DNA from: an uncultured Oscillospiraceae bacterium
GTDB taxonomy: Bacteria > Bacillota > Clostridia > Oscillospirales > Acutalibacteraceae
Assembly (NCBI GenBank): GCA_902492455.1
Contig: CABULH010000001.1
Coordinates: 143,862-207,861 of the forward strand
Length of the DNA stretch: 64,000 bases
Direction: 5' to 3'
Positions 4,407 through 5,985 of this stretch are shown piece by piece. How positions within the stretch are numbered: the first letter of the stretch is position 1; each line of letters starts with the position of its first letter. The notes beneath the pieces are model-generated. The model did no database searches and was not told the origin of the DNA. It saw nothing but the letters and a program-made list of their open reading frames with translations. The translations under genes and the position numbers were made by a program.

Positions 4407-4438
4407 TGGCCGGCAACTCATTACGAATTGCCGACCGC
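4407..4438 (-). terminator. Rho-independent terminator of tRNA-Leu (minus strand)
   Basis: Reverse complement gcggtcggcaattcgtaatgagttgccggccac followed by tttttat immediately 3' of the tRNA. Confidence 0.5.
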
Positions 4439-4443
4439 AGGTC

Positions 4444-4530
4444 TGGTGCCGCTGGCGGGACTTGAACCCGCACACCGTTTCCGGCCAGGGATTTTAAGTC
4501 CCTTGTGTCTGCCGATTCCACCACAGCGGC
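4444..4530 (-). tRNA. tRNA-Leu (anticodon UAA), type II, CCA encoded
   Basis: Manual cloverleaf on the reverse complement: acceptor GCCGCUG/CAGCGGC, D-arm GUG..CAC, anticodon stem AGGGA/UCCCU with loop CUUAAAA, long variable arm, T-arm GCGGG-UUCAAGU-CCCGC, discriminator A plus CCA; 87 nt. Confidence 0.85.
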
Positions 4531-4633
4531 AAATGAGTGGGATGCCATCCAATGATAGCCTATTTCAAGCGGGATGTCAAGCCGGCGAAGTGGATTCCCG
4601 CGCATATTTTCCCGTCCTAGACCGCATTTTTTC

Positions 4634-4662
4634 TTGACAGAGGGACAGGATAAGTCTATAAT
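4634..4662 (+). promoter_or_regulatory. sigma-A type promoter (TTGACA-17-TATAAT) of the DAHP synthase leader
   Basis: ttgaca gagggacaggataagtc tataat with exact consensus hexamers and 17-nt spacer. Confidence 0.6.
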
Positions 4663-4710
4663 TTGAACATATCTTGGATAAGGCAGCTGAACCGGAGGAG
4701 GACGCACGGG

Positions 4711-4794
4711 ATGAATCATTTTATCGTTACTGTCGTATACGCCGGCCTGTATGATGTCTATACGGGTTTTCTTGTGCTGCCTTTGTCCCGATAA
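4711..4794 (+). CDS. candidate 27-aa leader peptide (MNHFIVTVVYAGLYDVYTGFLVLPLSR) in an attenuator
   Basis: RBS ggaggagg 9 nt upstream; 3 Tyr and 2 Phe in 27 codons; stop lies 14 nt before a strong terminator hairpin that precedes an aromatic-pathway gene. Confidence 0.35.
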   Translation: MNHFIVTVVYAGLYDVYTGFLVLPLSR

Positions 4795-4807
4795 AACCGA
4801 CGATGGA

Positions 4808-4850
4808 ACGGGGGCGGCCTTTGGAAACAAAGGAAGCCCCCGTTTTACTT
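4808..4850 (+). terminator. leader (attenuator) terminator upstream of DAHP synthase
   Basis: acgggggcggcctttgg-aaa-caaaggaagcccccgt hairpin followed by tttactttgtt, inside the 5' leader ~20 nt before the RBS. Confidence 0.55.
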
Positions 4851-4871
4851 TGTTCATAAGGAGATGGTCTT

Positions 4872-5882
4872 GTGGTTGTTATTCTGAAGAAAAATGCCGA
4901 TGCGGGTAAAATCCAGGCATTGCTGCGGCAGATTGACACCCTAGGAGTAAAAACCAATTACAGTGAGGGTACGGAAGCCACGGTAATCGGTTTGATCGGC
5001 GATACTTCCCGGGTGGATATGGACACCCTTTTGGCAAATGAAGCGGTGGAGGATGTCAAGCGGATCACCGAGCCGTATAAGGCTGCGAACCGCCGGTTTC
5101 ATCCGGAGGATACGGTGGTATCGGTGGGAGCCGTGTCGGTGGGAGCGGGTACCTTCAGCGTGATCGCCGGTCCCTGCTCCATCGAAAGTGAGGAACAGTT
5201 AACCACGGTGGCCTGGGCGGTGAAGCAAAGCGGCGCCAAGCTGCTGCGGGGCGGCGCTTTCAAGCCCAGAACCTCTCCCTACTCCTTTCAGGGGCTGGAG
5301 AACGAGGGGCTGCGGCTGTTGCTGGCGGCGGGAAAAGAAGTGGGGCTGCCGGTGGTGACCGAAATCATGGGGGAGTCCCAGCTAGACGACTTTGCCGATG
5401 TGGATGTGATCCAGGTAGGCGCACGGAATATGCAGAATTTTCGTCTGCTGAAGGAACTGGGCCACAGCCGCAAGCCCATCCTGCTGAAACGGGGACTGTC
5501 CGCCACCATCGAGGAATTTCTGATGAGCGCGGAATATATCATGGCTGGGGGAAATCCCCATGTGATCCTTTGTGAGCGGGGAATCCGCACCTTTGAAACC
5601 ATGGTGCGCAACAATCTGGATATCTCCGCCGTTCCGCTGCTGAAACGACAGTCCCATCTGCCGGTGATTGTGGATCCCAGCCATGCGGCGGGAATGGCCT
5701 GGATGGTGGAGCCGCTGTCCCGCGCGGCCATTGCCGCGGGGGCGGACGGTTTGATGATTGAGGTGCACAACAATCCCAAGGCCGCTTTGTGCGATGGCGC
5801 CCAATCCCTGGATCCGGAGGAATTTGACCGGCTGATGGGAACGGTGAAAACCCGGGCGGCTTTTGAGGGACGGCAGATGTAA
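4872..5882 (+). CDS. 3-deoxy-7-phosphoheptulonate (DAHP) synthase, type I-beta, with N-terminal regulatory (ACT/FL-like) domain
   Basis: KDO8PS/DAHPS I-beta core (GPCSIES, LLRGGAFKPRTSPYSFQG, IVDPSH) plus a ~90-aa N-terminal extension. GTG start with RBS AAGGAG. Confidence 0.85.
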   Translation: MVVILKKNADAGKIQALLRQIDTLGVKTNYSEGTEATVIGLIGDTSRVDMDTLLANEAVEDVKRITEPYKAANRRFHPEDTVVSVGAVSVGAGTFSVIAGPCSIESEEQLTTVAWAVKQSGAKLLRGGAFKPRTSPYSFQGLENEGLRLLLAAGKEVGLPVVTEIMGESQLDDFADVDVIQVGARNMQNFRLLKELGHSRKPILLKRGLSATIEEFLMSAEYIMAGGNPHVILCERGIRTFETMVRNNLDISAVPLLKRQSHLPVIVDPSHAAGMAWMVEPLSRAAIAAGADGLMIEVHNNPKAALCDGAQSLDPEEFDRLMGTVKTRAAFEGRQM

Positions 5883-5985
5883 GAGGGTGTGACAGATCTT
5901 GTCCGCCGCTGTTTTCTATGATACAATACTTTATAAGAACGGCCCCGCCGGACGAGAGACGGGGAGAGAGAATGGAGACAACCAT

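Follow-up and report, generated by a model that had tools for sequence, protein, structure and literature searches.

How an uncultured member of the Clostridia adjusts its entry into the shikimate pathway is the question raised by the region upstream of its aroF gene. [quoted passage not shown] Attenuation by leader peptides is commonly presented as a device of Proteobacteria and Actinobacteria, and the Firmicutes as users of T-boxes, TRAP and riboswitches. An earlier note on this DNA, made from the sequence alone, proposed that aroF is preceded by a leader-peptide attenuator and not by a T-box. That reading is supported here mainly by comparison: orthologous leaders carry aromatic-rich open reading frames (ORFs), no T-box is detected, and covariation is seen in the antiterminator of a related group of leaders, termed A4. 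We put at roughly three in four the probability that the region is a ribosome-mediated leader-peptide transcription attenuator, most likely one that tunes aroF to charged tRNA-Tyr and tRNA-Phe. The window copy is poor in aromatic codons and has been remodelled; it belongs to a Clostridia family that is widespread and under-described.

The elements from the promoter to aroF, all on the plus strand, are the following.

4634–4662, plus strand: sigma-70-type promoter (TTGACA 4634–4639, 17-nt spacer, TATAAT 4657–4662), matching the consensus at 12 of 12 positions
4694–4701, plus strand: Shine–Dalgarno (SD) sequence GGAGGAGG of the leader ORF, read from the sequence, 9 nt 5′ of the ATG
4711–4794, plus strand: leader peptide ORF MNHFIVTVVYAGLYDVYTGFLVLPLSR, 27 codons, ATG at 4711 and TAA at 4792–4794
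4806–4854, plus strand: intrinsic terminator, in which 4806–4815 and 4818–4823 pair with 4828–4833 and 4836–4845, followed by the tail UUUUACUUUGUU
4858–5882, plus strand: aroF, with its ribosome-binding site (RBS) AAGGAG at 4858–4863 and its coding sequence, from the ORF list, running from GTG 4872 to 5882

The leader anatomy described earlier in front of aroF is thus confirmed, every element being present: the promoter is a consensus promoter, and the 27-codon ORF has its own RBS and three Tyr and two Phe codons. For the terminator preceding the aroF RBS the presence stands, and the distance from stop codon to hairpin, given as 14 nt, is slightly corrected to 11–14 nt. A promoter scan of the leader region returned three promoter-like sites (1.1 expected). 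Transcription of the leader probably starts near 4669, and the ORF, with its own SD sequence and start codon, begins 42 nt past this point; its Tyr codons lie at 4738–4740, 4750–4752 and 4759–4761 and its Phe codons at 4720–4722 and 4768–4770. The terminator stem, between the small ORF and aroF, is two-tiered and GC-rich (GAACGGGGGC/GCCCCCGUUU plus CCUUUG-GAAA-CAAAGG, 4806–4845, −30.3 kcal/mol), and the leader as a whole has a folding energy of −83 kcal/mol, far below that of shuffled sequences (z = −5.4). The AroF protein, of type I-β, combines a DAHP synthase domain (PF00793, E = 1.6e-77) with an N-terminal ferredoxin-like domain (PF18152, E = 8.3e-22).

Whether the small ORF is more than a chance occurrence was judged against random ATG-started ORFs of 22–32 codons in the window. 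Five of its 27 codons are aromatic (19%), where random small ORFs have 2.3 on average; 8.8% of the baseline ORFs have at least five aromatic residues and 1.6% have at least three Tyr plus at least two Phe, giving an empirical P of 0.016–0.09. The aromatic count by itself is therefore marginal; the case rests on homologs, and the comparative evidence is decisive. A scan of the whole window for a second leader-peptide-like ORF followed by a terminator gave no convincing case.

Direct homologs of the leader were sought with an nhmmer profile built from alignment A1 (six sequences: the window leader, L164, L166, L168, L171 and L002). Homologous leaders were found in at least nine other species, with E-values from about 1e-11 to 1e-45, those of L164, L166, L168, L171 and L002 reflecting membership in the profile alignment; L161–163, L165, L167, L170 and L001 were recovered independently. 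With AroF identity to the window protein, nhmmer E-value and leader peptide, they are the following.

L161–163: AroF identity 94%; E = 8e-17; peptide MGSYFAYGVYVGLYVDVTGELVLP (from the aligned ATG)
L164/165 and L166/167: AroF identity 82–83%; E about 1e-44 (L164 and L166 in A1); peptide MKISSAMTMVYVVVGLYVQGTGLLLLS
L168: AroF identity 80%; E = 5e-34 (in A1); peptide MNNAVWATKYGYYYYLFTNWGRSVFVV
L170: AroF identity 80%; E = 1e-21; peptide MRQTVYTAEYGVVVGLYCVYNTGLVLLS
L171: AroF identity 77%; E = 2e-43 (in A1); peptide MKCTVFTANGYPGLYYRGTGLALLS
L002: AroF identity 70%; E = 9e-32 (in A1); peptide MARFARKSAYGYDSLYAYCDMGFFPLQTIAA
L001: AroF identity 69%; E = 4e-11; peptide MERLTAKFAYFYFYLYYTCNTGLTLLSPPAN
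L175: AroF identity 76%; marginal, E = 0.006; similar aromatic-rich ORF MTLSLYTTKYYFDLYYYFTGFVLLQEECSLFS

In ten homologous leaders the ORF stands at the same place, and orthologous leaders retain the small ORF and its aromatic codons, usually with far more of the latter than the window copy; the conservation that the earlier note had named as a check is in this respect borne out. Five relatives with 77% AroF identity (L172–174 and L176–177) have no such leader. The closest comparison is with the sister species represented by L161, where the promoter is nearly identical to that of the window and the ORF aligns gap-free while the flanking leader carries indels. Tyr10 and Tyr14 are kept between the two by way of synonymous TAC/TAT exchanges, and each ORF has five aromatic residues in partly shifted positions (window: 4, 10, 14, 17 and 20; L161: 4, 5, 7, 10 and 14). 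A constant number of aromatics at moving positions is the pattern expected under selection on regulatory codons. The gene order differs among these loci. In L161–163 a methyltransferase gene (528–1289) separates the leader (238–361) from aroF (1501), and in L170 an APH-family gene (296–1156) separates the leader (129–285) from aroF (1215); judged from this arrangement, an attenuator in these loci would control a two-gene unit. In the window the leader stands directly before aroF, with a tRNA-Leu gene upstream instead.

Beyond these homologs, we surveyed aroF upstream regions at the level of the class. A first set comprised 80 aroF loci from species-representative genomes, and a larger set of 168 upstream regions added 80 metagenome loci and closer relatives. 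When genome and metagenome contigs were scanned with AroF, the relatives among the matches listed had at most 72% identity; the closer relatives came from a protein search followed by look-up of the encoding contigs. The closest named relatives, among the matches listed, are Oscillospiraceae (Candidatus Fimivicinus, 77%, and Anaerotruncus metagenome-assembled genomes, about 70%). By blastn the window leader has no meaningful nucleotide similarity to the 80 distant aroF upstream regions. Many regions of the first set nevertheless contain a small ORF dense in Phe and Tyr codons and then a strong terminator, the peptides MERLTAKFAYFYFYLYYTCNTG (L001), NNFFFYYPGYYYGAGFF (L009) and MNILNFAAEYFYFYFFGF (L011) being examples. 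A small ORF with at least six Phe, Tyr or Trp in 10 residues was found in 45 of 81 first-set regions, against 3 of 81 on the reverse strand and 3 of 78 in the region 500–900 nt upstream. In the larger set, at least five such residues in 12 followed by a terminator of −10 kcal/mol or better were found in 87 of the 168 regions (79 distinct peptides), the densest having up to 11 aromatics in 12 residues. The composition of these peptides is 15% Phe, 13% Tyr and 1% Trp, with Trp present in 22 of them, and an SD-like 4-mer lies at −16 to −4 in 58 of 79 leader ORFs. Aromatic residues account for 30% of the sequence in frame and for 11–15% in the other two frames, a contrast somewhat overstated because the frame was picked for aromatics. 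Carriers include Oscillospiraceae, Ruminococcus, Lachnospiraceae, Clostridioides difficile, Haloimpatiens, Phascolarctobacterium and Pelosinus, and the leaders in this sample span Oscillospiraceae, Lachnospiraceae, Peptostreptococcaceae and Negativicutes. Ribosome-mediated attenuation of an aromatic-pathway gene had been called uncommon in Firmicutes; for aroF in Clostridia this does not hold of genomes, since about half of the sampled aroF regions carry the design, C. difficile included, but it does hold of the literature, as searches of open-access papers gave no account of such leader peptides before aroF in Clostridia.

Structural evidence comes from A4, a sister group whose 14 leaders can be aligned and encode peptides like ..TAEYRYFSFTYFYGKAYFGLAEN.. 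The antiterminator proposed for A4 is 10 bp long, its 5′ strand being the Gly-Leu-Ala codons GGUUUGGCUG and its 3′ strand the 5′ arm of the terminator together with the loop. Its pairing amounts to 90.4% (26–47% in slid controls), and it has five covarying pairs, with a covariation score reached by none of 500 shuffles. Covariation was also found in 8 of the 11 pairs of the A4 terminator; the inner hairpin is 95.5% paired, and the helix between segments 1 and 2 (CAGCCGAAU with GGUUUGGCUG) 82% paired. A 'TAEY' segment-1 motif is common to A4 and to L170, a member of the window's own subfamily, so that both groups appear to be one family. Class-wide there is enrichment (Wilcoxon P = 9e-7) of a helix that flanks the aromatic cluster, its 5′ strand ending 0–3 nt before the first aromatic codon.

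One member of the class can be set beside published transcript ends. For the aroF2 leader of C. difficile 630 the source paper records an unexplained premature termination, and its tables put the aroF2 start at 2105883, a 3′ end 38 nt ahead of it, at 2105845, and the beginning of a 5′ untranslated region at 2105557. These positions were transferred by start-codon distance to L054, a C. difficile ortholog in a different assembly. There, −38 nt falls in a T-run (2457–2467) after the hairpin GAGAACTCATTAATGAGTTCTC, past an aromatic-rich small ORF, and −326 nt is 6 nt past a TATAAT box. The interval between the mapped ends (L054 2175–2467) holds an SD sequence and a 51-codon ORF, MKGILKELTAKLYSFYYFMFWGFYFSAGYFFYK..., with 13 aromatic residues, Trp included, in a 21-residue stretch. 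In at least one member of the class, then, the terminator appears to be functional in vivo, and with the leader-peptide reading a mechanism is proposed for the premature termination at C. difficile aroF2.

The absence of a T-box, as stated in the earlier note, is upheld. At Rfam gathering scores no T-box or riboswitch was found in the window, the sole RNA match being the tRNA-Leu. A scan of 4531–4900 with Rfam 15 (4227 models) at E ≤ 10 returned no T-box (RF00230), Phe_leader, Trp_leader or leu-phe leader, and the matches obtained were noise only (mir-1255, E = 2.1; CC2171, E = 2.8). On 20 related loci Rfam gave no matches apart from T-boxes in L078 and L080, and a T-box or riboswitch identity of the window leader is rejected on these three grounds. 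In L078 (1169–1454) and L080 (2168–2419) the T-box model scores 101 and 122 bits respectively, and these are bona fide leaders upstream of aroF. The presence of T-boxes where other aroF orthologs have a leader peptide is a case of sensor replacement at one gene. It is also the reason for considering that the window leader might be an undetected divergent T-box or, since 8.8% of random ORFs of its size reach five aromatics, a chance juxtaposition of a promoter, a random ORF and a terminator. Both versions are disfavoured, and their joint probability is very small indeed: a model that gives more than 100 bits on L078 and L080 is silent in the window at E ≤ 10, homologous leaders have the same ORF in at least nine other species, and the class-level enrichment lies far above its controls.

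For attenuation by a translating ribosome the leader should be able to form alternative pairings, and the earlier note had left an alternative antiterminator to be searched for. Such a pairing exists in the window, between segments 2 and 3 (2:3), and covariation backs the analogous helix in the related A4 leaders. The segments and one further hairpin are as follows.

4670–4687, plus strand: segment 1, UAUC..GGAUAAGGCAGC, 5′ strand of the anti-antiterminator, pairing with 4776–4793 in the minimum-energy fold
4744–4768, plus strand: hairpin H, in which 4744–4753 pairs with 4759–4768 (−10.3 kcal/mol)
4776–4789, plus strand: segment 2, GCUGCCUUUGUCCC, pairing with segment 1 or segment 3 and ending 3 nt before the stop codon
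4805–4818, plus strand: segment 3, made up of the terminator's 5′ flank and the lower part of its 5′ arm, forming the antiterminator with segment 2

The 1:2 helix (4670–4687/4776–4793) encloses the entire ORF, with a duplex energy of −23 kcal/mol; the 2:3 antiterminator has −20.6 kcal/mol as a duplex and −17.8 kcal/mol as a hairpin. In folds restricted to the RNA downstream of the ribosome and up to the end of the terminator 5′ arm, the 2:3 hairpin is the best fold for stalls at Tyr10, Tyr14 and Tyr17, is weaker for a stall at Phe20 and cannot form once the ribosome has reached the stop codon. In nine of ten homologs of the window, the distance between segment 2 and the stop codon is no more than about 20 nt. 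RNAalifold analysis of ten homologous leaders found a conserved terminator core (GCNGCCUUUG-N4-CAAAGGNNGC) on a basal stem with compensatory changes, and also placed hairpin H in the consensus, its eight pairs being kept in 7–10 of the ten. Hairpin H, conserved in all ten leaders, has Tyr14 and Tyr17 at its loop edges, is followed by the U-rich UUUUCUUGUGCU (the two together at 4744–4780) and looks terminator-like in a simple scan. It may be an RNA polymerase pause site that synchronizes ribosome and polymerase; alternatively, it may be a mere constraint that accounts for the conserved 'GLY..TG' residues.

Our working model is as follows; that the small ORF is translated and the ribosome stalls on it, the geometry of the footprint and the order in which 2:3 and 1:2 form are inferred from sequence and folding. 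When Tyr and Phe are plentiful, the ribosome would reach the UAA codon (4792–4794), where its footprint, extending about 15 nt upstream of the A site, would cover segment 2; segment 3 would then be free, the terminator (4806–4845) would form and the polymerase would halt before aroF. Because the stop codon is close to segment 2, segment 1 would not be needed for this state. When charged tRNA-Tyr (or tRNA-Phe) is scarce, the ribosome would stall at Tyr10, Tyr14 or Tyr17 (4738–4761) and leave segment 2 exposed, which would trap segment 3 before the 3′ arm is made, block the lower terminator stem and permit read-through into aroF and possibly on into the downstream valS gene, as no terminator was found between the two. 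Without translation, segment 1 would capture segment 2 and the terminator would form, making off the default state. Hairpin H may pause the polymerase and so let the ribosome catch up. With segment 1 placed upstream as it is in the window, read-through would require that the local 2:3 hairpin outrun a 1:2 helix that must close around the ribosome; by another route, a second, initiating ribosome could mask segment 1.

Several observations weigh against this attenuation model. The window ORF is among the aromatic-poorest of the class, its five aromatic codons being dispersed and their number non-significant alone; the close homologs L164 and L166 have just two Tyr codons, and in L161 it is ambiguous where the ORF starts. 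Taken singly, neither pairing reaches significance (2:3 has z = −1.0, with 151 of 1000 shuffles as good, and 1:2 has z = −1.9 against shuffles), the register of 2:3 varies among members of the window's own subfamily such that there is no consistent column assignment, and two class-wide duplex tests for an antiterminator, on 78–84 leaders, were not significant (median z of about 0 in one, P = 0.16 in the other). Once its 3′ arm exists, the terminator wins at equilibrium in every ribosome-masked fold; it was retained throughout when the footprint of the ribosome was masked in minimum-energy folding, so that these folds are uninformative on kinetics. As the terminator is always the more stable at equilibrium, read-through must be kinetic, as in classical attenuators. 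The greatest difficulty concerns segment 1. In L161 (codons 1–4), L166, L170 and group A4 it lies inside the ORF just before the first aromatic codon, and would thus be covered by a stalled ribosome. In the window this in-ORF strand has decayed (AUGGGCAGCUAC to AUGAAUCAUUUU) and its part is taken by the upstream AAGGCAGC; segment 1 is there upstream of the SD sequence, 24–41 nt 5′ of the ATG and beyond the footprint of a ribosome at Tyr10–17. Being uncovered, it might capture segment 2 even in starvation, and the stalled-ribosome step, with segment 1 so placed, is the weakest inference in the model.

These difficulties bear on the possibility that the window leader is the decayed relic of an aromatic attenuator, one that no longer senses Tyr or Phe and acts as a constitutive partial terminator or as a translation-only switch damping aroF. 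The loss of the in-ORF segment 1 and its replacement by a strand out of the stalled ribosome's reach would fit such decay, as would an aromatic count that is not significant alone, the shrinkage of the N-terminal cluster Y4 F5 Y7 of L161 to F4 in the window and the extra gene between leader and aroF in the sister species, a sign that the locus is being remodelled. We nevertheless consider a relic unlikely. The new Tyr17 and Phe20 hold the aromatic total at five, with no downward drift; promoter, SD sequence, reading frame, segments 2 and 3 and also the terminator have stayed intact; the stop codon, 3 nt past segment 2, provides for termination in plenty without segment 1; and the 2:3 hairpin is still the best local fold for the three Tyr stalls.

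It may also be asked whether the RNA itself is the sensor, with hairpin H and its enclosing helix binding a protein or metabolite (riboswitch-like or TRAP/PyrR-like) and the ORF incidental. The leader is indeed strongly structured, as its folding z-score indicates, nucleotide conservation within the subfamily is highest in hairpin H and the core of the terminator, and the conserved 'GLY..TG' residues could stem from constraints on the RNA rather than on the peptide. Set against this are the lack of a match to any Rfam family, the lack of a visible conserved core resembling a ligand pocket, and the shifting of aromatic positions with their number kept. Moreover, distant members without nucleotide similarity all have an in-frame aromatic-rich ORF between start codon and terminator, and most leader ORFs of the class have the SD-like site noted above (58 of 79). 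An RNA switch of this kind is accordingly a highly improbable explanation, and ribosome-mediated attenuation is the reading we carry forward.

The classical enterobacterial attenuators trpL, pheL–pheA, pheM–pheST and hisL have been summarized elsewhere (PMC11802643; PMC9413887). The window leader shares with trpL, pheL and hisL the small ORF, candidate alternative segments, the terminator and the placing of segment 2 beside the stop codon. It differs from the enterobacterial systems in having no sequence or Rfam-model similarity to them, in its host, a Firmicute of the class Clostridia, in its mixed and dispersed Tyr and Phe codons with no tandem run, and in a segment 1 upstream of the SD sequence. 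In classical attenuators a small ORF rich in cognate codons is combined with 1:2, 2:3 and 3:4 pairings and an intrinsic terminator, segment 2 lies by the stop codon, and the position of the ribosome decides the outcome. Closer in target gene is the aroR–aroF attenuator of Corynebacterium glutamicum, whose leader peptide, as summarized in a later account, has a Phe-Tyr-Phe block and allows read-through on stalling (Neshat et al., 2014, via PMC11802643), the response being, in the same account, to Phe and not to Tyr (PMC11802643). Likened on the basis of that description only, it resembles the window in having a leader with Phe and Tyr codons before an aroF operon and read-through on stalling, and is unlike it in belonging to the Actinobacteria and in having a single block. 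The uORFC-13-1 motif, known from 24 Acholeplasma and environmental sequences, occurs exclusively upstream of aroF (Brewer et al., 2021, PMC8632094) and comprises a predicted small ORF, in which a U-run encodes one or more Phe, directly followed by an intrinsic terminator (PMC8632094). Compared again by description only, it shares with our leaders the Phe-codon small ORF and terminator upstream of aroF, whereas the leaders described here are rich in Tyr and Phe (and Trp) and occur in Clostridia families and Negativicutes.

Leader-peptide control has other precedents in Firmicutes. His leader-peptide attenuators have been predicted computationally (PMC2965389; PMC9413887, including C. difficile); they too are predictions and put leader-peptide control in place of a T-box or repressor, but involve another amino acid and other target genes, with no sequence relation. 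In Bacillus subtilis, ribosome-mediated attenuation has been described for the antibiotic-response genes bmrCD and vmlR. T-box leaders likewise sense tRNA charging and control a terminator, and in L078 and L080 occupy the same place upstream of aroF; unlike leader peptides, they bind uncharged tRNA directly and without translation.

The locus is an entry to a large family that gave no match among the Rfam 15 models and which, on the sample examined here, would gate the first shikimate step in gut Clostridia. If the attenuator operates as proposed, the same amino acids would act on AroF at two levels, through the leader and through the ferredoxin-like domain; in the Thermotoga DAHP synthase the N-terminal ferredoxin-like domain mediates feedback by Tyr and Phe. 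It is tempting to extend the interpretation, and we do so tentatively, regarding it as somewhat doubtful that aromatic leader-peptide attenuation is the prevailing control of aroF in Clostridia and Negativicutes, C. difficile included, with the window copy working by a non-classical route. Such a route might be the masking of segment 1 by a second initiating ribosome or pausing at hairpin H. Were this generalization true, these Firmicutes would keep transcription and translation closely coupled on their leaders, while Bacillus subtilis is reported to lack such coupling ('runaway transcription'). The leader would also be a natural reporter of how tightly translation follows transcription in Clostridia.

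The genes on either side of the leader and aroF deserve brief mention. Upstream, on the minus strand, is a tRNA-Leu(UAA) gene (4444–4530) with a near-consensus promoter (TTGACA, 17-nt spacer, TATCAT; 4580–4552) and a terminator at 4436–4408; its promoter diverges from that of the aroF leader at a distance of about 55 nt. Downstream, valS begins about 100 nt after aroF. In Firmicutes valS is usually controlled by a T-box. The aroF–valS spacer (5883–5985) contains no T-box by Rfam and no plus-strand terminator, just a weak promoter-like site at 5899–5927, and valS may be partly co-transcribed with aroF.

The survey of upstream regions also brought to light a palindrome-like motif, CGCTTTAAA(G/T)CG or 'ACATAAAAGCTTTAAATCG', at aroF promoters with and without a leader peptide. 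The window's own aroF promoter does not have it. It is located, for example, in the promoter spacers of L108, L120 and L130 and just 3′ of the −10 box in L005, L006, L083, L171 and L172–178. The motif core GCTT[TA]AA[AT] is present in 22 of the 168 upstream regions, at about three times its density elsewhere in the loci, and the motif looks like a candidate operator for a repressor of aromatic genes.

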